Assembly: GCA_973895155.1 (NCBI GenBank)
Contig: OZ316893.1
Span: forward strand, 21,622,955 to 21,686,954
Reading direction: 5' to 3'
Origin: Marsupella aquatica
Lineage: Eukaryota > Plantae > Marchantiophyta
DNA length: 64,000 nucleotides
This document shows, piece by piece, positions 441 to 41,262 of the stretch. Position numbers and translations under genes: made by a program. The stretch's first letter is position 1, and each line of letters opens with the position of its first letter. The notes below the pieces were generated by a model. That model was not told the DNA's origin and did not search any database. It was given only the letters and a program-made list of their open reading frames with translations.

Positions 441-485
441 CTATGCTCCATGTAGTTTGGACAGAGATGGGGAGAATAAAAATTC

Positions 486-2110: not shown

Positions 2111-2222
2111 TATCACATGTGGTATGTAGACCATGTTGTAGCAGAAGCCCCTGCTGGGAAATACCCTATTTAAAGACCTGAAAGTTTCAGCCACAATGAG
2201 CAACCCACAAATTGTGTAAATC
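2111..2222 (-). pseudogene. 3' remnant (copy 0) of the fungal-type membrane protein gene, inverted
   Basis: Reverse complement reads GAAACTTTCAGGTCTTTA..GGGTATTTCCCAGCAGGGGCTTCTGCTACAACATGGTCTACATAC..CACATGTGAT, matching the ETFRSLGYLPAGAFATTWSTY..HVM end of copy 2 (11257-11336). Confidence 0.85.
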
Positions 2223-2333
2223 CTGTCAGGAGAAGTCAGAGGTTACCAGTGTGTAACCATTTCTACAGGGGCCTGCTATAGTCATAATCTGCTGCCCTGA
2301 AAAGTAGAGCCGGTAACCTCTTTCCGGGCAGGA

Positions 2334-2500
2334 GTTACGTATGCTAGTGCAGGTCTGGGCTGGGGTTATAGACTATAACCTGCTCCCGGAATATTCAAAG
2401 AAGCTTTCCGGCTGCCGCCGGTCAGCTTCTTTTCATATTCCGGACGCAAGGTTACAGCCTAGTAACCCTGCGCCCAGACCTGCATTACCCTATACGTAAC
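2334..2500. repeat. Long imperfect inverted repeat (approx. 72-bp arms), fold-back/MITE-like
   Basis: GTTACGTAT..TGCAGGTCTGGGC..CCGGAATAT..AAAGAAGCT pairs with AGCTTCTTT..ATATTCCGG..GCCCAGACCTGCA..ATACGTAAC. Confidence 0.75.
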
Positions 2501-3294
2501 CACTAGAAAGATCATCCTTATGTTGGCGAGATTGCATAAGTCCCCCGGGTTGAGGTCTCCATGTGGCTTTCTATGAGGCACTGGCTGTCTTTGAGGTTCT
2601 TATTTACAACCGAGGGAACAGATCTTGTTTCGAATTCCTGGCTGCTTGGTTGGCAGTTGTATCTTGCAAAGTTTTTATTTGTGTGCGAGTGTGCCTGCCT
2701 TCTGGTATGATGCGCAAGCATCAAAGAACATTTTTTTTTGCCTCGAAAAAACCAATTGAATTCCATTCAAAAAGCCAGCATACAACATGGGGGGCCCAGA
2801 AAACCGGGACACCAACCCAAAAGGACCTAAGGTCAAAAGTGCCGTGGCCGGGAAGAACCGGGAAACCAGAGAAGGAGCTGAGCCTCAACAAAGAACATTG
2901 TTGCGCAAGCATCAAAGAACATTTGAGAAGTTTAAATTTGCAATTTCGATTGTGCTGCTTTAAACTACTATAATTTCCGCTCATGATCTTTTTCGTCCTG
3001 TCTGGGAGCGAAAGAGCATTGTTTATTGCACTGTCCTGCCGTCAATTAGGAGGTTTGCATTGACAGCCCTGGGCACATTTAAAGTGGGACCTTGACATGT
3101 TGAACAGAGGGCAATCTCTCGAACAAATTGAGCTTGTGTTGTGAGTGACATTGGCTATTTCTGAATGCTGCGGCTTTTAATGAAATTCTAGCACTGGGAG
3201 GTTTATGGCCACAGAAGGAGCAAACGCTGTGCATCGTACATGATTCAGCCTAGAACTCCAAAAAGAGTAGTGATGGAAACCCCTGGTTAAATAC

Positions 3295-4941
3295 GACCTT
3301 CATATTAGTCAGCGAGGGTTGATAGATCTATACCAGGTTCGTCGAGAACAATGAGGCGAAGTGGCTCGATTTGAAGGGCAATAGAGCTGCAAATAATTCA
3401 CGGGATTTGGCCAAAGGCAGCAACGTACGAATCGTCCGAGCACATGACACCTCTTCAGTTTGCTACTCTCATTTCCTTAATTTCCCACCCTACTGTCTTG
3501 TAATTTCACTTGTAGTTTCAGTACAGTAGCAAATTCATGGCCAGGGTGTGAGTCCTGATCAACTCAGTCTACACTGACAAATTGCGGTGCAGCGCAGCTT
3601 CGGAGAGTAGTTCCGAACTTGAGTAGGAAAGTCTCGGCAGTGGTGTGGTCCCGATCAACGCGCTCTACATCGACAAATTACGCAGCCCAGCTTTGTAGGG
3701 TAGGTGTGCAGTCGCTCAGCGATTCGAACAACACTACAACAGGTTTTCGGCAGTGGTGTGGGTCCCAATCAACGCGCAAAATTACGCAGCCCAGCTTCGT
3801 AGGGTAGGTGTGCAGTCGCTCAGCGATTTGAACAACAGGTTCTAGCCCATCCTGGACCCTGATCGCCAAGACTTGTTGCAAGCAACTGGCCAGAGTTCGT
3901 ACAGCTGAACTTTTTGAAACGTAATATGCCCTTAAAAATTGTACATCGGGAAGTTGCAGTATTGTGCAGATTCTTGCATGTGACGCCATATCGGCGAAAA
4001 ACTCTTCCCTTACCAAGTTGCACAGAAGTGGGGTCGTGGATTATGAAATCGCAGTTAAATTATTTTCTTCATCATCTGCGCAAAACGAAAAGGCAGAATC
4101 CAGCAGAATATATCCTTGGGCGTTGCACGGTCCTTCCCATCGTCTCGCTTTGTTTACGCCAACCTTCACTTCCACCAAGAGGTCTGCATCTGTTAGAAAA
4201 GCGGAGCAGGAGCGGCGAGCGCTTTGAAACACTGATGCCAAGATGCGGAAGAGCAACTGATGTGTAAAGTCGGCTCTGTTCAATTCGGCTGCTGCGCTGA
4301 ACAGATGCCCAGTCTTCTCAACCAAATAGCTGAGTGGAGGTACTGTTTGTCTGTCCGTCTTTGTTCAGTCTCTGTTCAATCGCTGCCTTTTGAAATGCGG
4401 GGTGGATCATGCAACTTTCTAGTTTCCGTGCGATGTTCTAGTGTATGCTTCGATCTTCTCGGCTAAACGCAGTCCTTATGCGAGTTTGCCTCTTCATTCA
4501 GTTCTCGATGGGCATTGCGTTTGCAGGCAAGCGTTTGTCGTGAAGAAGGCCTTTGCTTTATAGCGTGCTCGAGATCTGAGGGGCTCACAAGGACAAACGC
4601 CAGTTGTGGTCAATTGTTGAGGGGGCTTAGTTATCTTGCGACTTATCGGTTCATGTGAACGCTTCGAAGATCAACTTCCTGTCGACTAGACTGCCAGGAG
4701 CTTTCGTTGCACGGAGCACGCCGCACACATTTTAGCATTTAACATCGGTTGGAGCGATGACTTGACTTGCACCTGATCAAGGTTCCCGCTGGTCACCCTA
4801 GCTAGTCAACGTGAGCCAGGCTTCCGACCGCAACGTTGTCACGTTTGCTCTGGAAAGAAACTATGGCGAGCTTGCGAGAGATTAAGTAGTATCGCGAACT
4901 TCCAGTTGAATCAGCCTCAACACCGTCAACGTTGAGATTAG
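3295..4941 (+). pseudogene. Decayed coding-like module upstream of membrane-gene copy 1
   Basis: Colinear homology with the sequence upstream of the other four full-length copies (shared blocks such as GGAAGAACAACTGATGTGTAA, GTGGAGGTACTGTTTGTCTGT, TTGTGGTCAATTGTTGAGGGGGCT); many indels, no long ORF. Confidence 0.55.
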
Positions 4942-6423
4942 ATGGCTGCCTTTAGAGAAATGACGACTCTAATGATTATGTTGGTCTCAGGAGCGGCGGT
5001 AGGGACAGTAATGGATGTCGTCACGGATATGTCAGTGAGACAAACGACAGTGTTCCATACGAATTGCACCGGACCCGCATCAGATTCCAGCTTCAATGTC
5101 ACTGCAAACACCTTGAACTTCGTCGCTGGACCCAACACCAGAGGAACTTTGCAGATCCTATATAGTTGCATCTTCACACTCTTAATATGCTCTTGGAATG
5201 TTCAACATCTAAACGTCCCTCCCCTGGATAGTAGCGCACGTGCTCTGTTTCTAAAGCCACTTTACATGATTGCCACGTTAACGGTACCTGAGTTGATAGT
5301 CGGGATAGCTTTGACGGAATGTGTGCAAGCCTGGAGGAGTGTGAGATACATGAAACGCATGCTTCCGGAGTTGGTTGAGCATGGAGGTTGGACAATGACA
5401 CACGCTTATTATGCTGGTATGTATGGATTTTTGGTGCGGAAAAGGGTAGCGCCAGAGCCAGAGCCAGGTACAAGTATGTTTCGAAGTTCTGTAATACGGC
5501 GAAGTGATCTATTGGTACTAAATACGGAGAGAATGGTGACGTACCTCAGATCTCTTCCCCCTCCAATTAATTTCGTCACGGAAACGGACATCCAATGCAG
5601 AGCAAAAGGAGACATTTTCCTGAAATGCACTGCAGCATTGCAAATATCCTGGTTCATTGTCCAGATGTCTGCTCGCAAAGCCAGGCATCTACAGATTTCA
5701 CAACTTGAAATTTGGGTTTTAGCGCATGCTATATGTACTTTAGTAAGCTACCTGTTGTGGATAAAGAAACCTCAAAATGTGAGTGTTCCAATCATCTTGG
5801 ATGAGGGCCCTGGAACATTGCCCTCCTGTAATGACTGGATTGACGCTAGATGGGAATTGGACTGTTATGGTGGGACTGAAGATGACGAAGGATTTAAGCT
5901 TCCTCTAGGAATGGAGGCTCGCTTATTCGAAGTGGGCTTGAGCTTGGGAGGTGTTATTTTGGGAACCATTCATCTCTTAGCTTGGAATGTCCACTTCGCC
6001 AGTGACACTGATGAAACTTTTTGGAGGATATCTGCTATTGTAACAATAGCACTTCCTCCACTGCTTTTGGCTTTCTCGACAGTTGGTAAGTTTGCAACCT
6101 TGTCAGTGAGAGGTGTTATTATTGGGGCCATGTATATCATATTTTGGGCCTCCTTCAGAGACGCTGATACAACTTTTTGGAGGATAGATCTAATTTTAGC
6201 AGCAGCGACTCCACTGTCTTGGGCTCTTATACTACTCATACTACTCAGTACTAAGTTTGCAACTACGTCGGTTTTGGGTAGGGTTGTGACAGTTACAGCT
6301 ATTATGTTTTACTCAATTGGTAGGAAGATTCTTATGAGAGAAACTTACAGGTGTTTATGGTATCTACCAGCAGGGGCTTTTACTACTGTCACATGGTCCA
6401 CATACATTCCACATGTGATGTGA
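4942..6423 (+). CDS. Intronless multi-pass membrane protein, fungal-type uncharacterised family (copy 1, intact, 493 aa)
   Basis: Uninterrupted ATG..TGA ORF with many hydrophobic segments and ordered motifs PNTRGT..ILYSC..TLLICSW..HLNVP, PEL, WTMTHAYYAGMYGF, AKGD..K..LQ..WF, ISQLEI, W.KKPQNV..P, GTIHLLAWN..F, FWR, ETYR.L..LPAGAF.TVTW..YIPH. Confidence 0.9.
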   Translation: MAAFREMTTLMIMLVSGAAVGTVMDVVTDMSVRQTTVFHTNCTGPASDSSFNVTANTLNFVAGPNTRGTLQILYSCIFTLLICSWNVQHLNVPPLDSSARALFLKPLYMIATLTVPELIVGIALTECVQAWRSVRYMKRMLPELVEHGGWTMTHAYYAGMYGFLVRKRVAPEPEPGTSMFRSSVIRRSDLLVLNTERMVTYLRSLPPPINFVTETDIQCRAKGDIFLKCTAALQISWFIVQMSARKARHLQISQLEIWVLAHAICTLVSYLLWIKKPQNVSVPIILDEGPGTLPSCNDWIDARWELDCYGGTEDDEGFKLPLGMEARLFEVGLSLGGVILGTIHLLAWNVHFASDTDETFWRISAIVTIALPPLLLAFSTVGKFATLSVRGVIIGAMYIIFWASFRDADTTFWRIDLILAAATPLSWALILLILLSTKFATTSVLGRVVTVTAIMFYSIGRKILMRETYRCLWYLPAGAFTTVTWSTYIPHVM

Positions 6424-8000
6424 TAGAGGGACCATTTTGGGGGAATCATAGATTTGTAGATAAGGTTGATCCAACTTTACGCAACCTTCCCCAAATGGTA
6501 TTTAAAAACTTTTAGGGTTACAGAATCTAGACAAATCAGCAAAATAATTTTCTGTAAAGCTAACTAAAGTTGTGAGGCTCCCCAAAAAGAAAGTAAAGTA
6601 GCTTGTCTTGTAGTTTTTTCCAACCTGCTCAAAAAGATTCTAATCTTAAGAAGAACGATTCATCATTACTTCTTAGAGTATGTTGGGATGAAGATTTTAA
6701 GAACCACCTGAAAACTAATTCCATTATGGACTTCAGATTTGGGAAGAAAACACCAACTAATCATGGTTACCTGGTGTTTGTGTAAAGTTTTACTCTAGTT
6801 TGGAGAAGCCGATAATACGCCAAATGTGTTCCCGCGATGAAATTACTGTATTGGGAACAAAGAAAACAGATCTGAGGAGTCAGATGGGTTAACCAACAGA
6901 TGACGCAGTCAGGGAGACAGTGCTACCAGCCGATCCAAAAGAGGAACTTGGGCTTGGAATGGGTGCAGATATATGCTCAGATCAGGGCCCTGGTGGTATT
7001 ATTTTATGGCTGACCAGGAGTACCTGCAGTGATTTGTTGGCCAACCCAACCCTGCTCAAAGACATGTTGCAGATTCATTGCCAGCCATTCAACTCTAAAA
7101 TTCAATGAAGCCAATGGGAGTTCAAGAGCATGAGGAGAAATTCTGATTTTACAATTGCTTGCCTCAGTCCCCCATCAAAAAGTACTCACCTAGTCAAATA
7201 ATCACTTCGGGCCCAACATCTATACTCACTGGGTTTAATTCAAAGTCCATGCAAAACAAATCAGATTCATGTAAGCATATGTATAAACAAACACTACTCT
7301 CAATCTGGCCAGAAGAAGAGTAAATGATGTCTTTGTATTTTCTAGTGCTCAGTAGAGCGTGTCAAAGTTCTCCCATAATCAAAGTGTTACGACTTTTATG
7401 TTTTGGACATATCACCCATAAGGGTACATATTTTGGTAGCCCATAGCGATTCTGTCCTGGCCGTAAGAACATTTTATGTCCTTAGCCATAACCACACGCC
7501 CTAGTGACAACACTCCCTAGTGACATCTTCCCAAATGAAGACAGGAATATTTCACCCATTATTCGGGACTACCCAACCTAGAACACAAGAGCTAGTTTGG
7601 GGATCCCACAAGTATTTCAATGCATTCAGTCAATTCGTTGGCTCTCCTAGAATCATGGAGGATGGGGAGCCAAAATTCTGCGAAGTGGAGCATGTAGAGG
7701 AGGATGAGAAGATAGAAAGTGTGAAGCAGAGATGATTTGGATACTACTCTTCGGAGAGTTCTCTTTAACGATGGACTCTGGTGGCAGTGTAAGAAACTCG
7801 TCAAGCTGCTGAGAAATTTGCGAGTGGGCAACGCATCTGAGCAAACACTTAGCTTAGACAGGCTCAGATGCTACACTAAATTCGAGCATTGGGAGTTTAA
7901 AAAATAAGGCCAGCGAAGGAGTAAATGTTGTGCCATCGTACATGATTCACCCCAAAATTGCAACGACAGTACAGCAGTGACGCAAAATCTGGGTAGATAT

Positions 8001-10005
8001 GACCTGCATATTTGTCAGCGAGGGTTGATACATCCACACCAGGCTTGTCGAGAACAATGAAGCAAAGTCGCGCCACTTAAAGAGTAGTGGAGAGAATATT
8101 GAGGCAAAGTCGCTCGAGTTGAAGGGAAATGGAGCTGCAAATAATTCACGGCCAATGCAGCGACGTAGCAATTGTTAGAGCACATGCCACCTTTTTAATT
8201 CTTCCTTTCCTTAATTTCCTTTCCAATCCGACCGACTTTGTACTTCATATGCCATCGGTATACCTCTCCAGTGGGGTGCTCCTCAACCTGTAAACGAATC
8301 AATGCAGTGATTTCATCAAAAGGTGGGCGTTACTAATGTTGATTCGATTCCAGCACCTCCACATCCGATACGACCCTGCACACAATTGAGTAGACCGAAA
8401 CATCAGGGAAGTTGAAAAAAGCATTCAATCTCAAGTGAGTACCCACTTGATCTGATAGAGCCTTAGTAGGAAAGTCTCGGTGTGGGTACTCATCAATGCG
8501 CTCTAGACCCGACCCTACCTTGACAAATTACAATTGAGCGCAGCTTCGCAGGGTATGTGTACAGTCGCTCAGTGATTTGAACAACACCTTTGCCATCCCG
8601 CCATCCCGGACCCTGATCTACCCTAGGCCTTCCCAATGATTTCCTCTAGTCTTCCTTATGGGCCTCCGGCGGGTGGTATCTCCGAATAAACAGAATATGT
8701 TTCTTTATCCTATCAAACGCATGATCCCATTCCGTGCTCTCCGTCGATGCGCAGAGAGCGGGCGAGGAGCCTTTTCTACAGTGAGTGCTGAACAGATCGC
8801 CAACTCCTGTAGAACAAAAATCGCCAGAGTTCGAATAGTTCCCTTTTCGAAAGGAAAGGTAAAGTGCTTCCCTGTAGATCGGCAAGTGCAAATTGTAGAT
8901 TTACAGTAAAGCAGAGTTTATTCTGGTGAAATCAAATTGCAGAGGTCGAAAGGTTGAGCTTTTTGAAAGGTATGGTGCTTTACTCTAGATCGACGAGCTG
9001 CAGTATTGAGCTGCAGTATTGTGCAGATTCTGGTCGGCCAAAACTCTTCCCTTACCAAGTTGCAGCGAAGTGGGGATTTGGATTAGCCAAGGTATTCAAA
9101 GACAACGGTTGACTTCGTAGATGATGACACCGCGTATAAGTTGTTTTCTCAACAATCTACGCGAAAAGAAAAAGCAGATTCCAACTGTATGTATTCTTGG
9201 GCGTTGGACGGTCCTTCCCATTAGTGTCGCCTGGATGCCGGGGGAACCTCCACCTCCACCAAGGAGCTCTGCATCTGTGAGAGAAGAGAAGAGGAGCAGG
9301 AGCGGCGAGCATTTTGAAACACTGATGCCAAGACGCGGAAGAACAACTGATGTGTAAAATCGACTATGCTTTCAATTCTACTGCTGCACTGAACGGCTGC
9401 CAGTTTTCTCAAGCAGATAGCTTTGTGGAGGTACTGTTTGTCTGTCTGCCTTTGTTCCATCGCTGCCTTTTGAACGCGGGGTCCTGCAACTTTCTGAGTT
9501 TTCGGGGGATGCTTTAGAGGCGTATGCTTCGATCTTATGGGCTGAGCGCAGTCTTTTCGCGAGCTTCCGTTTTGAATCATTTCTCGATCTGCTGTACGTT
9601 TGCAGGCAAGCGTCTGTCGCGCGGGATGAAGGGCTTTGATATACAACGTGCTCGAGTGCTGAGGAGCTCACGATGCTCTGGCTTCTCTATGGACAAACGC
9701 CAGGTTGTGGTCAATTGTTGAGGGGGCTTACCTTGCAACTAGGGTTTGTCCTATCCGTTCATTTCGCTTTGAAGATCAATTTGCTTTGTACTTAGACCTC
9801 CGCACTTCCTTGCACCAAGCACGGCGCAGACATTCAAGTTTAGTTGGAGTTACGATGTGAATTGCACCCGATCTAGGTTTCGACTGGTTACCCTATGATC
9901 CGTTTGAGCTAGTTACATCCTACCACAAAGTTCAGGTTCCTTTGGGAAAGAAACTATCGAGACCTTTCTTGAGATTGCAATCACAAATTTCCAGCTGCTT
10001 CAGTC
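8001..10005 (+). pseudogene. Decayed coding-like module upstream of copy 2 (longest version)
   Basis: Aligns by eye with 3295-4941 from its first block (GACCTGCATATTTGTCAGCGAGGGTTGATA) through TTCCAGCTGCTTCAG; carries extra segments absent from copy 1. Confidence 0.55.
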
Positions 10006-10008
10006 TCA

Positions 10009-11336
<1,328 letters not shown>

Positions 11337-12692
11337 TAGAGGCACCTTTTGGGGGAATATCATATTTGTGGATATAAAAGCTTGTGATTATCAAGAACTA
11401 TAATACAAGGTCCCTCTCTTGTATACAGTGGACATCTTTTGAATTTGCAGGGCCCAAAAAATAAACAATCTGACAAAGAATAGACAGTAAATTAATTACG
11501 TTTAGTGTGAAGGGAAACTCTCCAAGCAAGAAAAGTGGGCTATGCACGAGAGTCCTTGAAATTTGGTACCATCCATGCATATAAAGTGTTACTCTGGGCC
11601 GACTCTACCATTTTCTACCACTATAAATCCCCTATCCATAATAAAAAGTGTGAATCAATTTTGACCTTTCATCTGAAAACATTGTTTTTTAACACCGCCA
11701 GATATATCCATCACCCCAATTACAATAAATATCTATCCAACATGCCCTTTAGCCTGCTCGCACCTGCCCAAGATGAAAAACTTAATTAAGAAATATTTAA
11801 AATTGATATAAATAAAATGTTTATTTCTCTAAAAATTTAGTGCTAAAAAACTGTTTTTTCCTGTAACTTGATTGTCGTTGGACTCTATGATGGGGTGGCT
11901 GCTATCTTGTGTCTCAAATTCCTATATGCAATGGATAGGTTAATATTGAACATGTATCAATAGTAAAGCTTATAATTTCTTGTCTTGCCTTGACATCTTT
12001 TTTCACCTTGACATATTATTCTAATCTTCACATTTTTAACTCTCCTCAACATCTTTTCCTTGCCTTGCCATCTTTTCTCACATTGACATCTTTATCTTAC
12101 CACAACATTGTATTCTTACTCTCGACATTTTTCTCTCACCCTTGACATTTTTTCTCTCCTCAACATTTTTTGTCACCTTGATATCTTTTTTCAGGTTGAC
12201 ATTGTTTCCTGACAATCTTTCACGACTTTTCTATTTTGTCCAGAGACTCTCAAAGGCTTTGATTTCCATAAACTTAACTTCTGAATGATGCAGTGGCCCA
12301 TCTTGCCGCACCAGTGCCTTAAATCCACTTCCTAGGCCCTCAGCAAGTAGATCCGGCTCCAAAGCTTTGAGCATCGAGACAGATAATGGAAGAAAATTCC
12401 CAGAACCGAGTGCGTTTGTGAAAACTCCATAGAACAGCAAGTAATGCCCCCAAAACGATTATTTTTAGATTGCAGTGTCCGTGAGGATTCTGAGTAGGGT
12501 ATCAACAATTTCACCTGTGAACTGTAGAAAAATGTCCGTAACAACAAAGAACGTAACACGGTAAAAATTTACTGCATGAATGTGCCATCAAATTTCCAAG
12601 ATTGATGGATGAGATCAGATGATTATTGGTGAGGGTGTGCAGGTACTTTCAGTTCAATTGTTAAATATTCTTTGTGAGTTTTGATGGCATTT

Positions 12693-13169
12693 TTTACGGA
12701 CTCCCATTAGAGGTCCTTTCCAAAATTCCTGGCTTCACTGCGCACCACCTCATCATGGCACACCGCAAACCGGAAGAAACTTCTTTTTGGATAAAATTAA
12801 TTTCTACATTCGTGTTTGTGACAACTTTGCTGTAAAAACTGGGACGCCATGCCGTAAAAAAGAATGTGGTGGCGCGCTGTGAAGCCAGGAATTTTGGAAA
12901 GTACCTCTAATGGGGGTCCGTAAAGATTTTATTGAGTACTAAGGAGATTATGAATTTTAGAATTTATTTAGCTTTTAATGAACTTAACATTGATAGATTT
13001 AGTTCTAAAAGCTAGTTTTGTATTTGATGTTAATTATGGTTGCATTGGTAAGTTTGGCAACTATTTCAAGTGTCAAACATTGACTTGTCCATTTTTGAAA
13101 TTTTTTTCTTTAGATTTGGAGGTCCATCTAGGCTTTAGTTTCTAGAATAACATGGGGGTCCACGGATTA
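12693..13169 (+). mobile_element. Deleted copy of a non-autonomous dispersed repeat (longer copy at 58824-59948), containing an internal approx. 55-bp inverted repeat
   Basis: 12693-12866 matches 58822-58995; 12932-13169 matches blocks at 59328-59400 and 59776-59948. 12866-12924 is an inverted copy of the element's first approx. 55 bp. Confidence 0.75.
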
Positions 13170-16100: not shown

Positions 16101-16244
16101 ACAAAAGGAGACTCAGCTCTGTGCAATGCAAATGTGAAAGTGTGAAATGGATTAGTGAAAGACCCCTTTTTATGCTAATCATCCTCTCCTTTCTCGAGCT
16201 TTTCTAACCCTAATTTTCCGCACTGATTTTCCCTAATCCACCCT

Positions 16245-16905
16245 AATCCGCCTCCTAAACCTAATTCCTGGCCCGACCCACGAACCTGAACTCCGCCCTG
16301 GCCCCTACATACAATCCCGATCCCCGACCCTGGATCCAGCCCCCGAACCCCGTTCCCGGACCCTTGAGTTCCCCCGCCCCTGATCGACCCTTCCCTGGAC
16401 CCTAGACTCCCGAGCCCCAACCCCAGACTCCCCCCAAACCCCGCTCCCGGACCCCACCCCCGGACTCCCTCCGGACTTCCCCCGCCCCGGACCCGCCCCT
16501 GATCCCCCGATCCCCCGAAATCCCCGCCTCCAGACCCCGGCCCCGAACCCCCGATCCTCTTCCCCCGGCCGTCTACCCCGGAACCTCACCCAGGAGCGCA
16601 CCATCCCCTGGCCGCCGACCCCCGAACTCGGCCCGCCATCCCGGCCTCATCCCCCGACCCCGAACTTTACCCCGGGCCCCGAACTTTACCCCGGGCCCCG
16701 AACTTTACCCCGGGCCCCGAACTTTACCCCGGGCCCCGAACCCGGACCCGGTCCCGACCGGCTTTGGAACCCGGCTCTTAGTTTGGACCGGGGGAGACTG
16801 GGGGGAGTCCGGGAAGTGTCGGAGAATTCCGGGAATTGTTGGGGGGGGGTCCGGGGGGAGTTCAGGAGAATTTCGGTGAATGCGTGAAACTTCCGGTTTT
16901 GGGGC
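16245..16905. repeat. Very GC-rich, strand-skewed low-complexity block with 4x 19-bp tandem repeat CCCCGAACTTTACCCCGGG (16658-16733); probably TE-derived
   Basis: Read directly from the sequence: C-rich plus strand switching to G-rich after approx. 16790; ACCCTAA-like motifs just upstream. Confidence 0.75.
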
Positions 16906-17239: not shown

Positions 17240-18777
17240 TGCAAATTAATCTACATGCAAGGCACCTCCGATCATCAGTGGCTTTGCGGAAGGATTGGAG
17301 GGCAGATAAACTCTTTGGAATCCGCGATTGTATGACAAATTCAACGGCAACAACAGCTGCCGTAGGGGATGACAACCCCGCGTCTAAAAATTGTTTTCCT
17401 TTCTATTCTACTACTCTACTACTTCTCTTCTCTAGCAAAACGCTTCGTGGAGGTAAATATTTGTCGGTCAGTATTCGTCCAATCGCTGGTTTTGAATGCA
17501 GGGTCGGACTGTGAGACAGAGATGCCTCTTATGTAAAGTTTTGCTGAGCTGATTGACATTCGCCATCAGACATTTTACCTCATCACGTACCGAAACTTGA
17601 TTTTCTTGTATCCGATCAAACCACTTTTGTACTCTTGAATGTCTCTTTAATGCCGAAAGGCAAGATCAATGTTAACTGAGATGGATGCTGCAACACCTCC
17701 GATACAACCATGCACGGAATCGAATCGACCGAAGATCGAGGCAAGCTCATAGGTTTTAGACCAAACCTGAACGACTTGCCCAGCACAACTGCTTTGACTG
17801 TTTGTCTGGTTGTAAGTTGTCAAGATTCTGGTGACGCCATAAACGTCAGATCGGAGAAAAGTGTTTCCCTTACCAGGTTGAGTCAAGATTTTTGTTGACG
17901 CAAGATCGTAGAAAAATGCTCCAAGAGATTGACAGAAACAGCATATAGATTGTTTTCTTCAACAATCTGAGCGGGAAGACAAAGTCAGACAACAGTGTTG
18001 ATATATATATATATATATATCCTTGGGCCTTTGGCGGCCCTTTCCATCGGTCTCACTTAAATGCTCACCAAACCTCCAACATACGTACCAGAAGTTCAGA
18101 ATTGGAGGAGCGCTCTGAAACAAGAAGGGGAAGAACAACTGATGTGTAAAATTGGCTCTCTTTTCAATTCTACTGCTGCGCTGAACGGCTGCCAGTCTTC
18201 TCGTGCAAATAGCTTCGTGGAGGTCGTGCAAATAGCTTCGTGGAGGTACAGTTTGTCTGTGTGTCTTTGTTCGATCACTGGCTTTTTGAATGCGGGGTGG
18301 ATCATGCATGCAACTTTCTAGTTTTTGTGCGATGTTTAGTGAAGTATGCTTCGATCTTCTGGGCTAAACGCAGTCCTTATGCGGAGCTTGCGCTTTCAAC
18401 TATTTCTCGATCGGCTATGTGTTTGCAGGCATGCGTTTATGGTGAAGATTGAAGGCCTTTGATCTATAGAGTGCTCGAAATCTGAGGGGGTTCTCTGGCT
18501 TTTCTGTGGCCAGGTTGTCGTCAATTGTTCAGGGGGCTAACCTTCGGGCTTACCTTGCGACCAGAGTTTGTCCTTTTGGTTCATTTGAACGCTTTGAAGA
18601 CCAACCCCCGCAAGTCAATCTTTTCCTGTTCCTTTTCCTTTTCCACATTCAACTTTGTTAGAGCAATGATCTGAATTGCACCTGATCAAGGTTTCCACTG
18701 GTCACCCTAGAGAGTCCGTCTGTCTGAGCCAGACATCCGACCACAACCTTCCAGTTGCTTCAGCCCGAACACCGTCG
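17240..18777 (+). pseudogene. Decayed coding-like module upstream of copy 3
   Basis: Homologous to the other upstream modules; carries an extra, more diverged duplicate of the FSSK.LRGG..SVFVQSL block at approx. 17425-17510 and an (AT)10 run at 18001-18020. Confidence 0.55.
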
Positions 18778-20144
18778 ATGGGGATGGCTGGCTCGAAACA
18801 TAGTCAGGTTTCGGTGATTATCGCTTCCGCTGTAGGGGCGTCAACGGCTGTGGGATTCTATCTCTCCCATGATATTATTTCGAAACAAACAACAGTGTTC
18901 CTTACAAACTGCACCCGGCCCACATCAGATTCCAGCTTCAGTGCAAACACCAGTTCGGGTTTCAACATCATCACTACACCCAACACCAGAGGAACTTCGG
19001 AAATTCTATTGACTTGCATCTTCACACTGCTAATATGCACCTGGCAAGTTCAGCATCTAAACGTCCCTCCCCTGGATAGTACCGGAGTTGGTCTATTTTT
19101 TAGAAAGCCATTTTACATGCTTGCCACATTGGTGGCACCTGAGTTGATACTGGGGGAAGCTTTGGGAGAATGTGTCCAAGCGTGGAGGAGTGTGAGATAC
19201 ATGAAACGCGAGCTTCCTGAGTTGGTTGAGCGTGGAGGTTGGACAATGACACACGCATTTTATGCTGCCATGTATGGATTTATGGTGAGGAAGAGGGTAG
19301 TCGATGAGCAAGACCTTGCCAGTACTCCTATTTCGATAGATAAGAGTATGTTTCGAACTTCTGTAACACGACAAAGTAATTTATTGGTATTAAATACGGA
19401 AAGAATGGTGATGTATTATAAATCGCTTCCCCCTCCAAGAAAATTCATCACGAAAACGGATATACGATGCAGAGCAAAAGGAGACATTTTCCTAAAATGC
19501 ATTGCAGGACTCCAAACCTTCTGGTTCATTGTCCAGATCTGTGCTCGCTGGGCCCAGAATCTATATATTCCCAACTTGAAATTTCGGTTGTAGCATATGC
19601 TATATGTACTTTTGTAAGCTACATGTTGTGGATAAAGAAACCTCGAGATGTGAGTGTTCCAATCATTTTGGATGAGGGCCCTGAAACATTGCCCGGTTCT
19701 AATGACTGGTTTGACACTCGTGAGGCATTGGACTGTTATGACGTTTCTGAAGATTACGAAGGATTTAACCTTCGTTTAGGAATGAAGGCTCACTTAATCA
19801 TAGTGGGCTTCAGTGTGGGAGGGTTTATTTTTGGGGCCATTCATCTCTTAGCTTGGAATGTCCACCTCATCAATGACCCTGAAAGAATACTTTGAAGGGC
19901 ATCTTCAGTTGTAACAACAGCAATTCCTCCATTGCTTTTGGTTTTCTCTACAGCTGGTACTAAGTTTGCCCGAATGGTTCTGGGTAGGGTTCCACCTAGG
20001 GGCCGTGTGACCTATGTGGCTCTTCTCTTTTACACAGCTGCTAGGGTGTTTCTTTTGTTAGAAACTTACAGGTATTTGTGGTTTTTACCAGGAGGGGCTT
20101 TTGCTCTTGTAACATGGTCCAAATACATTCCGCATGTGATGTGA
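18778..20144 (+). pseudogene. Fungal-type membrane protein pseudogene (copy 3), closest paralog of copy 4
   Basis: Nearly colinear with copy 4. The lesions I can see are a 1-bp deletion near 19565-19571 and TGG>TGA at 19893-19895; ends VTWSKYIPHVM*. Confidence 0.9.
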
Positions 20145-25624: not shown

Positions 25625-26866
25625 TGCAACGGAGCTTCGTATATTAATTCCGACCTTGAATAGGAAAGCCTCGGCGCCCCTAGGCCGTGGTGTGGGTCTC
25701 GATCACCCTGCATGCTCTACATTGATAAATATCAACGCATCGCAGCTGCGTAGGGTAGGTGTGCAGCAGCTCCGCTATATGAACAACAGTATTGCTATCC
25801 ACCCCGGACTCTGATCGGCAACACTTGTTGCAAGCAAATGGTCAGATCGAGCTTGAAAAGTTGAGCTTTTTGAAACGTAAAATGCCTTTAGACTACAGGT
25901 ACATCGGCAAGTTGCAATGTTGTGCTTCCCTTGGTAACCAATTTGCAGCGAAGTGGGGATTCGGATTATATAGCCAACGTATTCAGTGACAATGGTTGAC
26001 AGTGCTGATTATGAAACCTCGTGTAAATTGTTTTCTTCAACATCTGTGCAAAACGGAAAAGCAGAATCTAACAGACAGTATATATGCTTGGGCCTTGGAC
26101 CGTTCTTCCCATCGGTGTCCCTTTGATGCCCGTCGAACCTCCACCTCCACCAGGAGGTCTGCTGCTGTGAGAGAAGCAGAGCAGGAGCGCCAAGGGAAAC
26201 TCTGATGCCAAGCTAGACGCGGAAGAACAACTGATGTGTAACGTGGGCTCTCTTTTCAGTTCTACTGCGGTGCTGGACGGCTGCCAGTCTTCTCAAACCA
26301 AATATCTAAGTGGAGGTACTGTTTGTCTGTCTGTCTTTATTCAATCGCTGTAGTTTGAATGCGGGGTGGATCATGCATGCAACTTAGTTTCTAGTTTTCC
26401 TGCGATGTTTAGTACCGTATGCTTCGATCTTCTGTGCTAAACGCAGTCCTTATGCGAGCTTGCGTTTTCAATCATTTCTCGATCAGCTATGCGTTTGCTG
26501 GCAAGCGTTTAGCGTGAGCAAGGCCTTTGGTCTACACTGATTTGAGGGGCTCACGGGGTTCTGGCTTTTCTGTCGACAAATGCCAGGTTGTGGTCAATTG
26601 TTGAGGAGGCTTACCTTGCGACTAGAGTTTGACCTGTCGGTTCAATTGAACGCTTGGAAGATTAACTTGCTGTCTAATATATAGACCGCTGCAAGGCCGA
26701 GCAGGGCGCAGACATTTTTCACATTTAACTTCGGTTGGAGCGCTGATCTGAATTGCACCTGATCAAGGTTTGCACTGGTCACTCGAGCTAGTCCGTCTGT
26801 CTGAGCTAGACATCGATCCGACCACAACCTTCCAGTTGCTTTCAGCCTCATCACCGTGGCTGATCG
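25625..26866 (+). pseudogene. Decayed coding-like module upstream of copy 4
   Basis: Colinear with approx. 3585-4930; abuts the ATG at 26867. Confidence 0.55.
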
Positions 26867-28249
26867 ATGGGTGGCTCGAAGCAGAGTAAGGTTATAGTGA
26901 TTATCGCTTCCGCTATAGGGGCATCAACGAGTGTGGGATACTTTCTCTCCCGGGATATCATTTCGAAACCAACAACAGTATTCCATACGAATTGCACCCG
27001 ACCCACACCAGATTCCACCTTCAGTGCACACACAAGTTCGGGTTTCAACATCATCTCTACACCCAACACCAGAGGAACTTCAGAAATTCTATGGAGCTGC
27101 ATCTTCACACTCTTAATATGCACCTGGCAAGTTCAGCATCTGAACGTCCCTCCCCTGGATATTAGCACATTTGGTCTGTTTTTTAGAAAGCCATTTTACA
27201 TGCTTGCCACATTGGTGGCACCTGAGTTGATACTGGGGGAAGCTTTGGGAGAATGTGTCCAAGCGTGGAGGAGTGTGAGATACATGAAACGCGAGCTTCC
27301 CGAGTTAGTTGAGCATGGAGGTTGGACAATGACACACGCTTTTTATGCTGCCATGTATGGATTTATGATGAGGAAGAGGGTAGTCGATGAGGAAGACCTT
27401 GCCAGCACTCCTATTTCGATAGATAAGAGTATGTTTCAAACTTCTGTAACACGACAAAGTGATTTGGTGGTATTAAATACGGAGAGAATGGTGATGTATT
27501 ATAAATCTCTTCCCCCTCCAAGAAAACTCATCACGGAAACGGATATACGATGCAGAGCGAAAGGAGACATTTTCCTAAAATTCATTGCAGGACTCCAGAT
27601 CGTCTGGTTCGTTGTCCAGATGTGTGCTCGCAAAGCCCAGAATCTATCGATTTCACAACTTGAAATTTCGGTTGTAGCATATGCTGTATGTACCTTTATA
27701 AGCTACACATTGTGGATGAAGAAACCTCAAGATGTGAGTGTTCCAATCATTTTGGATGAGGGCCCTGAAACATTGCCCATCTCTAAGGACTGGTCTGACA
27801 CTCGGAAGGCATTGGACTGTTATGAAGTGACTGAAGATTACGAAGGATTTAACCTTCCTTTCGGAATGAAGGCTCAATTAATTGTAGTGGGCTTCAGCGT
27901 GGGAGGCGCTATTTTTGGGGCCATTCATCTCTTAGCTTGGAATGTCCACTTCATCAATGAGACTGATAGAACGTTTTGGAGGACATCTTCAGTTGTAACA
28001 ACAGCAATTCCTCCATTGTTTTTGGCTTTCTCGGGAGTTGGTACTAAATTTGCCACAAAGGTTCTGGGTAATAAATTTGCCACAAAGGTTCTGAGTAAGG
28101 TTCCAGGGGCTGCGACCTATGTAGCTATTCTAATTTACACAGTTGGTAGGGTGTATCTTTTGGTAGAAACTTACAGGTATCTATGGTTTTTACCAGCAGG
28201 GGCTTTTGCTCTTGTAACATGGTCCACTTACATTCCACATGTGATGTGA
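26867..28249 (+). CDS. Intronless multi-pass membrane protein, fungal-type uncharacterised family (copy 4, intact, 460 aa)
   Basis: Uninterrupted ORF with PNTRGTSEILWSCIFTLLICTWQVQHLNVP, WTMTHAFYAAMYGF, AKGDIFLK, ISQLEI, WMKKPQDVSVP, FGAIHLLAWNVHF, TFWR, ETYRYLWFLPAGAFALVTWSTYIPHVM. Confidence 0.9.
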   Translation: MGGSKQSKVIVIIASAIGASTSVGYFLSRDIISKPTTVFHTNCTRPTPDSTFSAHTSSGFNIISTPNTRGTSEILWSCIFTLLICTWQVQHLNVPPLDISTFGLFFRKPFYMLATLVAPELILGEALGECVQAWRSVRYMKRELPELVEHGGWTMTHAFYAAMYGFMMRKRVVDEEDLASTPISIDKSMFQTSVTRQSDLVVLNTERMVMYYKSLPPPRKLITETDIRCRAKGDIFLKFIAGLQIVWFVVQMCARKAQNLSISQLEISVVAYAVCTFISYTLWMKKPQDVSVPIILDEGPETLPISKDWSDTRKALDCYEVTEDYEGFNLPFGMKAQLIVVGFSVGGAIFGAIHLLAWNVHFINETDRTFWRTSSVVTTAIPPLFLAFSGVGTKFATKVLGNKFATKVLSKVPGAATYVAILIYTVGRVYLLVETYRYLWFLPAGAFALVTWSTYIPHVM

Positions 28250-29742: not shown

Positions 29743-29775
29743 CTAGCCCGATTACCCGTTCCTTGAACGTAAACA
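29743..29775 (-). mobile_element. Putative Helitron 3' terminus (hairpin + CTAG|T)
   Basis: Minus strand: ...CGTTC-AAG-GAACG GGTAATCGGG CTAG T. Lies within an approx. 320-bp stretch (approx. 29722-30040) absent from the paralogous flank of copy 3 (approx. 21120). Confidence 0.5.
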
Positions 29776-30828: not shown

Positions 30829-31096
30829 GGGAGGAAACTATGGAGGATCGAGACAACTAGCCACACAACGGGTCAGAGGTCTTGACCAAGAGAAACCCTT
30901 CATCTTCTTCAAAGGCAAAGGAATGAACAGAAGGCTAAAGGCTACCTCAAAGGGCCAAAACAGGGAGGAAACTATGGAGGATCGAGACAACTAGCCACAC
31001 AACGGGTCAGAGGTCTTGACCAAGAGAAACCTTCATACTCTTCAAAGGCAAAGGAATGAACAGAAGGCTAAAGGCTACCTCAAAGGGCCAAAACAG
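30829..31096. repeat. Tandem duplication, 2 x approx. 134 bp
   Basis: GGGAGGAAACTATGGAGGATCGAGACAACTAGCC...GGGCCAAAACAG repeated at 30829 and 30963. Confidence 0.9.
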
Positions 31097-31100
31097 AATC

Positions 31101-31208
31101 TGAAACTTACGGCAGCGCCGTAAACCAGAGCAGAACCCTAACCTGCTTCTTGAAGGGGATCATGGCCGTAGGGGTCCGCTCTGGTTTATGGTGCTGCTGC
31201 AAGTTTCA
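31101..31208. repeat. Hairpin with approx. 40-bp imperfect arms
   Basis: TGAAACTTACGGCAGCGCCGTAAACCAGAGCAGAACCCTA pairs with TAGGGGTCCGCTCTGGTTTATGGTGCTGCTGCAAGTTTCA. Confidence 0.8.
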
Positions 31209-32080
31209 ATTGTCCCAAGAGCAATTCATCCATTACTTTTGCTTCTCAATGCACTCCAGCTTGCTAACTACAGAAAGACCAATGACGTGTTCCTATGGCC
31301 TGCTTTCTAATCAGGAATGCCTTAGATGAGTTCAATGCTTCCTCCTCTCCCTTGCAATGTCAGAATTGCTGCTCAATGTTGAATCTCCCTCCCCAACATT
31401 TGATGTGTGTGATCTATCATGCTCCCTCCCTGAGATTTGTTGTTCTTGTTGTGCTGCTATTTGAAAACACCTTAGATCTGTTGTTTGTACTGTGCTGCTA
31501 TTTGAAAACAACCCTGCCACTTGCTATTGCTACTATTCCAAAATGAGCCTCACTTCCGGATGTTCCAAGGTCTCCGCTAAATCGCCATTATTTGCACTAA
31601 ACTGCCTTGCACTCTGTGGTGAGGTGATATTCTTATAAAAAGGTGAGCCAAGCTCTTACAAGGCCTACTGTAGATAGGAACCAGGCAACGGGGCAGTTAT
31701 AGGGGCCGTTTAAGTCCAGAAGATGGCAGAGGGGCCTTCTAGTCCAAACTTGCTTTTAGAGATGGCTCTGTTAAGTCCAGAAGATCGATAGCATAGGGGC
31801 CTGTTAAGTCCAAACTTGCTTTCAAATATCACGATTCATTAGTAAGATTGAATACTTTTGTCAACTTCCCTTATCTTTGGTCCATATGATTGGCTAGAGG
31901 GTTATCTCTGATGTTGATATGCTTGAGTGGCATTTGTTGGTGTTCTTGCTCCTTGGATTTCTTTTCTTTGTGCTCCATTGGCTTTCACTGTGGGTTGTGT
32001 GTGAATAAGTTTGGCATACTATTGCATTCTTTTTGCGAACAAAGTTTTATAAATTATAAACCACAAAGTAAACATGACTA

Positions 32081-32743
32081 CACTCTTTACAGTATTTAGT
32101 GTCACGAAACAAGTGTCACACACACTAATTACGGGTAGCCCTTGATTTTCAGCCAAGTGACACTATTTACCATCACCTTCAATTTTTAAAATTAAATAAA
32201 TATATTTAAAAATATTGATAATTAGAGATGATAATTTAATTGGTGATAATCCTAAACTGGACTCACTCCAACTATGTAGTTAGTTTGTTAGGATGTTAGT
32301 TTGTAACTTATGTGAGACAACATGTGTTATTCATAGTTGATAGAAGTGAATCAAACATTTATTGTTTGCTCAATGTGGTTGAGTACCTCAAACTGCAATT
32401 TTGTGCTATGTGAGAAATTTCTGAAGTTGGCTCAGCTCAATGTTTGAGACTTAGTATATGGAAAGAGTTATAAGTTTCTGAAGTTTGCTCAATGTTTGAG
32501 TAGTAAATTTTGTAAAGTGTAATCAAATATTGTGCACATTTAAAAAAAATTATAAGCAAATTTTGACTATTGACCATTCTATTTTTTTTAACTTAAGTGT
32601 ACATGTGACACTATTCAATTTACTTACAGTGACCACAATTAGTGTCATACCATATTAGTGTCACACACCCTAATTACTGCCACTTACCTCAAATATAACC
32701 TCACAGTAATTAGAGTGTGTGAGACTAAATAATGTAAAGAGTG
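32081..32743. mobile_element. Non-autonomous TIR element with TA flanks (Tc1/mariner- or Stowaway-like MITE)
   Basis: TA|CACTCTTTACAGTATTTAGTGTCAC ... GTGAGACTAAATAATGTAAAGAGTG|TA: 25-bp TIR with 2 mismatches, AT-rich interior, subterminal GTGTCACAC repeats. Confidence 0.75.
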
Positions 32744-33009
32744 TAGTTAGTTATTTCTTCCTAAATCCCAAGTAAGTAATGAAAGCCCCCCTCAACAATC
32801 ATTTATTGTAATCACAAGCTTTTTCTTGATAATCTAGTATTCCTGGACAAAGTTCCCCTTTATCAGAAAAAGAGCTACTGTACCTCTATCATATCACATG
32901 AGCCGTGTCCCAAATCCTAAGTGAGTAATTAAGGGATGGCTCAAGAATCATTTCTTCTCAAACACTTTTTTATCGATAAATTTATCATTCCCCAAACAAG
33001 GTTCATCTC

Positions 33010-34515
33010 TCACGTAACATATGGCATGTATGTTGACCATGTTGTAGCAAAAGCCCCTGCTGGTAAATACCCTAAAGCCCTGAAAGATTCCCCCAAAATA
33101 CCCAACCTAACAACAACGTAAACCACCAGAGATATGGATGCCATCACTGCTTCACGTATTCCCTATAAACCTCCACTGCATGCCAGTCCATGAATTCTTG
33201 CCGTTGGAGAGGTCCTTTGGAATGCGCCGAGTAAATAGAGAAAAATTGGAATCAACATTGCTGCTTCAAGTGATAGTATCCTCCCAAGTGTGTTCTCAAT
33301 GAGAGTGGGGAAGTCAAGATTCCAAGCTAAGAAATGAAGGACCCAAAAAACACAGCCTCCCACAGTGACGCCAAGTGCGGTATATGTGTCAAGCTTAAAA
33401 TGTAAAGGAAGATTACGTAGTATGTGATTTTCAATCTGACCACAAAAGGAATTAGCATGACTGTCAAACGAGTCCTCCCAAATGGGCAGTGGTTCAGGAC
33501 CCTCATCCAAAAACGTTGGAACACTCACGTTTTGAGGTTTCTCTATCCACAACATGTAGCTTATTACAATGCATACAGCAAACGTAAAAAACCACAATTT
33601 CTAGTTGTAAACCGGTAGATGCTGGACACGGCGAGCAATCACCTGGACCATGAACCATACTACTTGGACTCCTGCAATGCATTTTAGGAAAATGACCAAT
33701 TTTGCTATGCGCTTGATATCCACTTCGGTGGTGAAAACTATTGGGGAGGGAAGGGATTTCAGATAAATGACCATCCTATCTGTATTTAATACCAATAACT
33801 TACTCGATGGCATTACAGAGTCTGGAAAGACACGGGTAGTGGCAAGCTCTAGCTGGCTCAACAATAACCAGATTCGTCAAAGTAGAAGTGAAGGCAAGGT
33901 CTAGCTTGGCGACACTGGTATCTGTCAAAATAGAAGCAGTGGCAAGGTCTGGCCTCGGGGATAATGGTATCTTTTGAAATAGGAGTAGTGGCAAGAGCTA
34001 GGTCTGGCTCGACCATAATGGGATCTGTCAAAATAGAGTAGTGGCAAGGTCTGGCTAGCTCAACGACTATCCTCCTCCCCAACATAAATCCGTGCATATT
34101 AGTTTAAAAACCTTGTGTCCTAGTCCAACCTCCATGCGTAGCCAATTCCGACACCTCGCGTTGCATCTTTGTCACACTCCTCCGCGCCTGGATGAATTCT
34201 CCCAAAGCAATCCCTACTAAAAGCTCAGGTACCAACAACGTGATAAGCGTCCACAACAGTTTTCTCCAATATAGAGTAACATCTTTGCTATTCGGGAGAG
34301 GGACGTTCAGATGTTGAACCTCCCAGGTGCAGATTAAGAGCGTGACGAGACAGCCCCATAGAATCTTGAAAGTTCCTCTAGTGTTGGGTGCAATGATGAA
34401 GTTGAATCTGGAGCCTCATGGGTCGAGTGCAATTTGTGTGGAACACTATTGTTGTTGCCGCAACAGGAATGGAATACAGAAACACTAGATGCACATAGTA
34501 CTTCATGACAACCAT
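33010..34515 (-). pseudogene. Fungal-type membrane protein pseudogene (copy 5, inverted)
   Basis: Minus strand: MVVMKYYVHLVFLYSIPV..HTNCTRP, PNTRGTFKILWGCLVTLLICTWEVQHLNVP, GGWTRTQGF* (TAA at 34104-34106), WIEKPQNVSVP, HFLAWNLDFPT, LPAGAFATTWSTYMPYVT*; several frameshifts. Confidence 0.9.
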
Positions 34516-35870
34516 CTAATCTCAGCGTCAACAACGTCAAAGATTAAAGCAGCTGAAAATTTGTGACCGCAATCTCTCGCAAAGGTCTCAAAATTTTATT
34601 TCTAGAGGGAACCTGAAAAGGTTGTGGTCGGGTGTTATAGCGTAGATGGACTAGTGGCTGAGTAGGGAAACCTTCATAAGGTGCAAGTCACATCGTCGCT
34701 GCAACCAAAGTTGAATGTATATTGCCCCCTGGGCCCTCACTCTGTGTAAAAGAAGTTGACCCCCTGCGATCGGGCCCTTTCGTGTTTACCCCTTGTTATT
34801 TCTATTTTACCATTAAAAGTTCTCTTATTACCGACGGGATTACCGATAATAATTATAATTATTAGTTCAAAATGAATAAAAACTACCCTTGGAGCGTTCG
34901 CACGTCCTCCATGTATTAGTTAAGACTGAGGGCCCAGGGATATTGCCTCCATCGTGCTTGGTGCAGGAAAGACGTGCGGCGGCCTAGTAGAAAGCAAGTG
35001 ATCTTCAAAGCGTTCAAATGAACCCATCAAAACTCTAGTTGCAAGGTAAGCGCCCTCAACATTTGACCACTGCCTCGTGAGTCCCTTAGAAGTTGAGCAC
35101 GGTGTAGATCAAAGGCCTTTTTCCCAACAAACGCTTGCCTGCAAACACACAGCAGTTTGAGAGATAATTCAGAATGCAAGCTCGCATGAGGACTGTGATT
35201 AGCCCAGAGGATCTAAGTATACTTCACTAAAACATTGCACAAAATCTCAAATGTTGCATATATGATCCACCTCGGATTTGAAAGGCAGCGATTGAAAAAA
35301 ACTGACAAACAAACAGTACCTCCACGAAACAAATTGCTTGAGCAGACTGGCAGCTGCGCAATGCAACAGTAGAATTGAAAACAGAGCCGATTGTACACAT
35401 CAGGTGTTGTTCCGTGTCTTGGCATCAAGTGTTTCAAAGCGCTCGCTGCTCTTGCTCCTCTTCTCCCCGCTCTTCTCTCACAGATGCAGACCTCCTAGGT
35501 GGAGGTTCAGCCGGTATCAAAGCGAGACCGATGGGAAGGACCGCGCAAAGGGCAGGGACACATGTATACTATTGGATTTTGCCTCTTTTTCTCTGCACAG
35601 ATTGTAGATGACAACAATCTGTACGCGGTTTCATAGTGCCCGAAGTCTTGAACTCTTAATATCGCTGAATTCGCTGGCTAATCCCAATCTTCATTGCACT
35701 CCGCTTGGTGAAGGAACCGATTTTCTACGATCTGGCGTCACCAGAATCTTTGACAACTTAGAACTTGCCGATTTAAAGTGGCAATCAGCTCAACATACCT
35801 TTATATGAGCTTCATCTCTGTCTCAGTTTGACCCCGCATTCAAAAGCCAGCGAATTGAACAAAGACGCAA
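34516..35870 (-). pseudogene. Decayed coding-like module upstream of copy 5 (inverted together with it)
   Basis: Reverse complement matches the other upstream modules; ORF 35213-35437(-) LMPRHGTTPDVYNRLCFQFYCC..FRGGTVCLSVF preserves part of the probable ancestral frame. Confidence 0.55.
34727..34939. mobile_element. 213-bp MITE with 13-bp perfect TIRs and 8-bp target-site duplication
   Basis: ATATTGCC|CCCTGGGCCCTCA ... TGAGGGCCCAGGG|ATATTGCC; absent at the homologous position of the other upstream modules. Confidence 0.85.

Positions 35871-38056: not shown

Positions 38057-41262
<3,206 letters not shown>

Follow-up and report, generated by a model that had tools for sequence, protein, structure and literature searches.

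A local array of fungal-type membrane protein genes in the liverwort Marsupella aquatica, probably captured from a Pezizomycotina fungus

A stretch of 64,000 nucleotides (nt) from contig OZ316893.1 of the liverwort Marsupella aquatica, referred to as the window, carries between 2.1 and 35.9 kb an array of genes for a multi-pass membrane protein of fungal type, which very probably reached the liverwort lineage from a fungus of the Pezizomycotina. A first description made from the letters without database searches (the sequence-only reading) had placed six related loci on the same sequence as a plant CFIm25 gene, an ALDH3 gene, a PPR fragment and a copia element. This arrangement was borne out by Pfam matches and by searches of the window against itself with tblastn and blastn, which, combined with six-frame reading and alignment, recovered five long copies (c1 to c5) and one remnant (c0) (Table 1). 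The main tblastn E-values of the self-search, 1e-31 to 1e-180, lie far past chance. Two loci are intact, three are broken and one is a remnant. The same counts had been given before, with intact open reading frames (ORFs) of 493 and 460 amino acids (aa); the pseudogenes, however, had all been called full-length, and c2 is only near-full-length. The remnant c0 was recognized at the DNA level only, and the homology of its 3' flank extends to about 1912. The two intact copies, c1 and c4, are 58% identical to each other, and the young pseudogene c3 shares 90% DNA identity with c4.

In the alignment, the coding sequences (CDSs) of the copies are collinear and without introns. Each long copy is preceded by 0.6-1.1 kb of conserved upstream DNA; the five upstream regions are 67-78% identical to each other, and GTGGAGGTAC is identical in all of them. 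Since every long copy carries this related upstream DNA, the duplicated unit was the gene together with its promoter. A splice-donor-like GTGGAG/GTAC followed by a T-rich stretch occurs in all five copies (at 4340 in c1, at 26316 in c4, and at the equivalent positions of c2, c3, and c5), and TTTGCAG/G is present in four of the five. Because of this conserved upstream site, the earlier statement that the genes have no introns holds for the CDS only: judged from these motifs, the copies likely contain an intron in the 5' untranslated region (5'-UTR) that was acquired after the transfer.

Table 1. Positions of the family copies, their upstream regions and other elements in the window
Feature	Position	Strand	Basis or remarks
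c0, C-terminal remnant, 110 bp	2111..2221	-	blastn to c2, c4, c1, c5 ends, E down to 2e-27 (c2 end); alignment
c1, intact ORF, 493 aa	4942..6423	+	ORF reading; alignment
c2, pseudogene	10153/10186..11336	+	stops, frameshift near 11033, ~46 codons gone including the WTMTHAF motif
c3, young pseudogene	18778..20144	+	1-bp deletion near 19567, stop at 19893
c4, intact ORF, 460 aa	26867..28249	+	ORF reading; predicted leader, 7 full helices and Pro119-Glu120 hairpin
c5, inverted pseudogene	33013..34515	-	frameshifts, stops, repeat-expanded loop
Upstream conserved region of c1	4034..4919	+	splice-donor-like GTGGAG/GTAC (its GT at 4340); promoter and 5'-UTR intron likely
Upstream conserved region of c2	9046..10008	+	window self-comparison
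Upstream conserved region of c3	18121..18760	+	window self-comparison
Upstream conserved region of c4	25735..26842	+	window self-comparison
Upstream conserved region of c5	34953..35870	-	window self-comparison
Presumed PLS-class PPR gene remnant with E-type motif, broken; left flank	~380..1000	-	PPR E 0.007 at 606-809 (weak); three-frame reading
CFIm25 (NUDT21) host gene, 7 exons	38057..41186	+	NUDIX_2 match; 2.2 kb from array
Aldehyde dehydrogenase host gene, presumably ALDH3-type, 10 exons	48248..52630	+	Aldedh match
copia-type retrotransposon pol (reverse transcriptase/RNase H)	61911..64000	-	RVT_2 E 1e-68; extends past window end

The closest relatives of the window copies are four proteins of the leafy liverwort Calypogeia fissa (Jungermanniales), namely CAM6088010.1, CAM6084336.1 and two paralogues, which are encoded on contigs of 5-47 Mb and show 37-44% identity. 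Two of the four proteins lie on contigs of identical length (5.4 Mb) and are thus possibly also clustered. In a first search, an organism was given for 18 of 45 matches (3 C. fissa, 15 fungi); a second one yielded 33 of 66 (4 Calypogeia, 29 fungi), and 15 of 30 relatives that were looked up comprised 2 Calypogeia and 13 fungal proteins. All named relatives outside Calypogeia belong to Dikarya fungi. Plants other than Calypogeia, algae and prokaryotes did not occur among the named matches (33 of the 66 listed in the second search), which suggests that the family is absent from other plants. Between the window copies and fungi the identity is 30-37%, with phmmer E-values down to 1e-56 against non-plant members. 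The ordered motifs listed in the sequence-only reading are present in the alignment, and c1 and c4 keep 26 and 27, respectively, of 31 near-invariant family residues.

The family comprises 17,009 clusters at 50% identity. ESM Atlas places it among clusters from Asco- and Basidiomycota annotated as "hypothetical protein" (feature score, 0.96-0.97) and gives the nearest structure cluster the nameless label PF29556. The sequence-only reading had tentatively assigned it to PANTHER PTHR35043. A local copy of Pfam, NCBIfam, PHROG, and PADLOC gave no credible family match, and pattern scans of prokaryote genomes and viral contigs, which are insensitive and detect close relatives only, gave no relative. 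A metagenome scan found 46 loci, none near the plant clade (best, 34%); at 8 of them the gene is a single uninterrupted frame. Among 28 family proteins scanned for domains there was one DnaJ fusion. Two basidiomycete members (P0082 and P0172) have two family domains in tandem, which could represent fused neighboring genes or a covalent dimer. Our literature search found no paper on this family and none mentioning PTHR35043 or PF29556; the horizontal gene transfer tables of PMC12513842 may already list it.

At sites conserved in the family, c1 and c4 evolve under purifying selection. Synonymous divergence (dS) between c1 and c4 is 0.31, and nonsynonymous divergence (dN) is 0.05 at 80 family-conserved codons (ratio, ~0.16), compared to 0.24 at the remaining codons. 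Over the whole CDS, dN/dS amounted to 0.76 (confidence interval [CI], 0.58-1.03), and over the core to 0.67 (CI, 0.48-0.95). Insertions and deletions within the CDS are multiples of 3 in 7 of 9 cases, with the other two totaling 135, compared to 1 of 23 upstream. In a neutral simulation, the frames stayed open in 4 and 3 of 3000 runs. Together, the selection and the simulation indicated that c1 and c4 were functional until recently at least.

To the c4 protein AlphaFold2 assigned a confident model (predicted local distance difference test [pLDDT], 80, and 86 for the N-terminal half; predicted template modeling score, 0.80). It consists of the leader, a helix at 71-89, a helix pair with a kink at Pro119-Glu120, a small sheet that closes off the two variable loops, and further helices at 235-257, 264-282, 338-356, 365-398, and 403-441. 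On the grounds of signal-peptide-like starts, charge bias and an N-C-T sequon (present in 92 of 158 non-plant rows of the alignment), the protein would have a lumenal N terminus, seven passes, a re-entrant Pro-Glu hairpin and cytosolic variable loops, and both c1 and c4 are predicted to be membrane proteins of the secretory pathway. Searches with sequence and model found no credible match: the PDB sequence search gave no credible relative (best E, 0.17; a second search, none), Foldseek against PDB and BFVD no fold match (best E, 0.73), and VIA-align of the whole model and of its N-terminal half partial bundles only (best Z, 9.4 and 7.6). For known channel or transporter folds (MFS, CLC, rhodopsin/GPCR, bestrophin, Orai, and NINJ), of which a match across most of the domain would be expected, these values were the best obtained. 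The absence of a structural match does not make the fold new. A model of a Calypogeia protein was superimposed on a 69-member, mostly Ascomycota cluster labeled PF29556 with a TM-score of 0.80 over 369 residues, both structures being predictions.

Individual copies depart from this common architecture. In c1, the segment spanning transmembrane helices TM5-TM6 is duplicated internally, with about 5945-6030 recurring at 6107-6186 (72% DNA identity; blastn E, 1e-8; protein score reached by none of 2000 shuffles); this would add a helix pair and keep the topology. The leaders of c1 (4942-5040), c3 (18778-18880), and c4 (26867-26965) are longer and strongly diverged, with a dN of about 1. A signal peptide of the Calypogeia/fungal type is retained in the pseudogenes c2 and c5, that of c2 being the ancestral signal-peptide-like start. 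In the lineage of the surviving copies, targeting may have been altered. The cytosolic loop of c5 is expanded by repeats (33880-34060), and Calypogeia paralogues carry short repeats in the equivalent loop.

Structure prediction also supports a homodimer with a Cys-Cys contact. For the Calypogeia protein P0003, homodimer prediction scored 0.46, compared to 0.00 for the best of three controls; the runs agreed in at least 86% of contacts at a pLDDT of at least 68, and the contact with the lowest error was Cys29-Cys29. Of the solved homodimers, 21 of 30 from microbes and 17 of 29 from eukaryotes attained the mark used to call dimers, compared to none of 23 microbial and none of 30 eukaryotic monomers. 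The dimer Cys is present in 151 of the 158 non-plant rows with a residue at this position, and it is the sole Cys of the N-terminal segment in 151 of 178 rows, which is what a disulfide between two chains would need.

The invariant residues are polar and lie within the membrane or next to it (Arg69, His91, Glu120, His157, Lys238, Gln244, Gln251, Arg255, Glu266, His354, and Arg428); c1 and c4 retain every one of them. A re-entrant hairpin with an acidic residue at its tip, set against a polar helix face, is a typical feature of channels and secondary transporters, and this combination therefore favors a dimeric channel or transporter. Among the candidate mechanisms, this is a tentative first choice that stays short of even odds; a His/Glu membrane enzyme appears distinctly less probable, and a sensor or death effector slightly less so again. 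In the channel or transporter model, the single Cys of the lumenal segment with the N-C-T sequon would meet its twin across the two-fold axis, and invariant Glu120 at the re-entrant hairpin would face a polar stripe (Lys238, Gln244, Gln251, Arg255, His354, and Arg428) acting as a solute path.

An account that keeps the fungal origin and instead makes the protein a membrane-embedded enzyme would have His91, Glu120, and His157 (or His354 and His458) bind a metal or catalyze a reaction on a lipid or secondary metabolite. Conservation of these residues is high (His91 in 167, Glu120 in 177, His157 in 174, His354 in 172, and His458 in 138 of 178 non-plant rows), neither c1 nor c4 has lost any of them, and PMC12513842 describes other liverwort genes of fungal origin as secondary-metabolism enzymes. 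However, no enzyme motif was recognizable, and the gene neighborhoods do not point to a pathway: 36 ORFs at 17 metagenome loci produced 15 Pfam matches, each of them different, with no neighbor or pathway gene repeated. We consider this account unlikely.

A little less likely still is a fungal gene for a 7-helix sensor or membrane-damaging effector of non-self recognition that the plant took up for its dealings with fungi. Such a role would fit a large, fast-diverging family with highly variable cytosolic loops and birth-and-death turnover in the plant, and ankyrin and WD40 repeat genes adjoin 2 of the 17 metagenome loci; tandem turnover is, however, possible without a defense role, and signaling or NACHT fusions were found in none of the 28 scanned proteins. 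The top structural match, to the C-terminal helices, was the membrane-rupture protein NINJ2 of the NINJ1/NINJ2 pair (Z, 9.4; root mean square deviation, 4.9; 101 residues). It spans residues 322-435 only, a fifth of the protein, at 10% identity, and Z-values below ~13 are ordinary for helical bundles. Since this lies in the range of chance bundles, kinship with NINJ1/NINJ2 was not accepted.

Concerning the origin of the gene, three trees were computed: FastTree with 186 rows (rows below 300 aa left out), a quick IQ-TREE C20 analysis with 69 rows, and LG+F+G4 with 38 rows, the latter two sets being hand-picked to span the clades of the 186-row tree. Window and Calypogeia copies formed a single clade in all of them (support 100, 100, and 100/100, respectively), and its sister group consisted of the identical 7 rows each time (99, 98, and 97.5/95). 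Xylogone, Podospora, and Xylaria are the three named members of this sister group; the remaining four rows are without an organism name. With constrained trees built by fast search, the approximately unbiased (AU) test rejected a grouping of the plants with the Mycena-containing clade (p=0.001). An N-terminal segment, F..NCT.P...FV..P..RGT, is common to the plant copies and the ascomycete subfamily and absent in the three basidiomycete rows, those of Mycena, Leucocoprinus, and Fibroporia. One Calypogeia protein clustered with the window copies rather than with its own paralogues (90.8/97), which suggests that duplication predates the split of the two plants. On this phylogenetic evidence, the gene very probably moved from a Pezizomycotina fungus to the liverwort lineage, and we infer that the transfer was old, predating the split from Calypogeia, and that it occurred as DNA. 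As the gene is intron-free at 8 of the 46 metagenome loci, transfer of DNA from an intron-free donor suffices, and retroposition is not needed.

It is improbable that the gene was instead an ancient eukaryotic one retained by Dikarya and some liverworts alone, or came from an unsampled donor. The AU test did retain a plant clade placed external to every ingroup ascomycete row (p=0.069), the trees lack a true outgroup so that the position of the root is not fixed, the sister rows are partly nameless, and identity to fungi is low. Survival from an ancient gene would, however, require many losses, and a root on the plant stem ranked only 28th of 73 branches by minimal ancestor deviation, with the midpoint falling elsewhere. 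The N-terminal segment shared specifically with one subfamily, the lack of prokaryote or virus relatives in the two insensitive scans, and the lack of a credible NCBIfam or PHROG family also speak against it.

The array is integrated among plant genes. Five public runs from three studies contain the region at 31.5-41.4 kb of the window; all five cover part of the array, and X1, X2, X3, and X5 also cover the CFIm25 half. Contig depth in X1 was 12 for c1, 13.4 for c5, 13.2 for the spacer, and 9.4 for CFIm25, and its contigs were identical to the window except for a single gap in the spacer contig; X1 is possibly from the source sample, in which case it is not independent. In X2, depth was 69-90 for c5 and 58 for a CFIm25 intron, and in X3 it was 192 for c5 and 118-218 for pieces of CFIm25. 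X5, from another study, contained diverged alleles with a depth of 4-8 on the array copies and 5.6 on a CFIm25 intron. Repeats at hundreds of times single-copy depth are interleaved with the copies: that at 12.7-13.2 kb occurs again at 57.9-59.9 kb, and a high-copy repeat inserted at ~34727-34939, between the c5 CDS and its upstream region, reached a bin depth of 39,680 in X3, compared to ~150 nearby. Contamination is thus very unlikely, and a chimeric assembly of fungal contaminant and plant DNA, for which one can cite that no contig of the public runs bridges the array to CFIm25, is very improbable in view of host-gene-like depth in three studies wherever both were covered, allelic variants in X3 and X5, high-copy repeats within the array, plant flanks on both sides, a GC content of about 0.44 throughout the window, and closest kin on chromosome-scale Calypogeia contigs.

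The reads also bear on the turnover of the array. The c3 deletion is visible in them (X1 depth, 14 of 41 without the base near 19567), and they indicate at least one further c3-like copy that still has the base missing in c3. The unit at 14-20.6 kb had a depth of ~1.5 times single copy in X1 and about half in X4, and the low-depth X5 showed little or no cover at 14-18 kb. Although contig depth is weak evidence, these differences hint at copy-number variation or a collapsed duplicate.

Taken together, match taxonomy, trees, read depth and selection supported what the sequence-only reading had proposed, a fungus-to-plant transfer followed by local amplification, and neither broad plant or algal orthologues among the named matches nor any sign of a chimeric join came to light. 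Plant flanks on both sides, presence in a second, related plant genome (Calypogeia), and selection on the retained copies were all found. In the explanation that we prefer, a liverwort ancestor would have taken an intron-free gene from a Pezizomycotina fungus; the captured gene would then have been duplicated locally into an array, of which two copies were kept by selection as secretory-pathway membrane proteins acting as Cys-linked dimeric channels or transporters. We assign this explanation as a whole a probability of roughly 0.55. Weighing against it, besides the retained placement outside the ascomycetes, the missing outgroup, the unnamed sister rows and the unbridged junction described above, are four further points. 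Absence from other plants was judged from 39-66 word-search matches and the best 150 of an exhaustive search, in a family of 17,009 clusters. The high overall dN/dS between c1 and c4 means that, away from the conserved sites, constraint is weak. Dimer modeling covered the Calypogeia protein only, and of 7 eukaryotic dimers lacking an older solved relative just 1 attained the mark. Finally, the channel interpretation derives from conservation and secondary structure.

Compared to the multi-pass membrane family of Dikarya (the PF29556-labeled cluster), the window copies have the same motifs and near-invariant residues. In contrast to it, they sit in a plant genome; c1, c3, and c4 have the longer, remodeled leader, a Gly-to-Tyr exchange in MGGF and loss of the Pro from FPT; and c1 has its duplicated helix pair. 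The Calypogeia proteins, which are unnamed predictions, differ from the window copies by keeping the short signal-peptide-like start, which in the window persists only in c2 and c5. The fungus-derived bryophyte genes FBT (fruit-body lectin), RDS1, YANB, EUPF, KP4, and NAS resemble the array in their fungal source, few introns and accessory or multi-copy nature (PMC12513842; PMC11906373; PMC12454661), but their products are lectins, enzymes or toxins whose domain is known, whereas the window family is a polytopic membrane protein with no solved fold.

The host genes and other elements of the window are included in Table 1. The exons of the aldehyde dehydrogenase gene, whose subfamily we take to be ALDH3, join into a single frame of ~475 aa with GT-AG introns. 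The broken PPR gene on the left flank is one that we take, from its motifs as read by eye, to be of the PLS class with an E-type motif. A MITE-like (miniature inverted-repeat transposable element) short inverted-repeat element is present in several copies (12689-13170 and 57896-59950) and had very high depth in all runs covering 12.7-13.2 kb. The 3' flanks of c0 and c1 form a 640-bp inverted duplication (76%; 1344-1948 and 6723-7350), part of which also occurs at 13699-13819. At 16178-16880, a GC-rich island (61%) that contains short tandem units and, on the minus strand, a Gly-rich frame adjoins exon-like DNA at 13.5-16 kb; it has no Pfam match and may be the promoter for a host locus within the array, either spliced non-coding or degenerate. 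Tandem duplications of recent date lie at 30829-31096 (135 bp, 98%) and 43966-44326 (182 bp, 98%). Between CFIm25 and ALDH, a hydrophobic frame of 166-209 codons on the minus strand (46038-46667), consisting partly of simple repeats and without a Pfam match, is probably non-coding.

According to PMC12513842, bryophytes contain 1,809 transferred families, with on average 229 transferred genes each, which have few introns and are in many cases of unknown function, and single cases of fungus-to-bryophyte transfer are described in PMC12454661 and PMC11906373. As an event, the capture reported here is one further fungus-to-bryophyte transfer on a long list, a new instance of a known and frequent process and not a new kind of event. 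Its value is the handle it provides on a very large fungal membrane family without a named function or solved fold: the plant copies reveal which residues survive a jump between kingdoms, and the model highlights a single conserved Cys at the dimer axis and an invariant Glu at the re-entrant hairpin. One might go further and suppose that the fungal family as a whole consists of disulfide-linked dimeric channels or enzymes with an unsolved fold, which leafy liverworts captured from an ascomycete, provided with a plant promoter and a 5'-UTR intron, and now cycle through copies, their number differing from plant to plant, in their dealings with fungi; this chain of assumptions is unlikely as a whole, and a role in defense or fungal interaction in the plant is a guess. 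If it is true that the plant uses the protein against or with fungi, the array would provide a rare example of plant-fungus interaction in which a captured polytopic membrane protein takes part.

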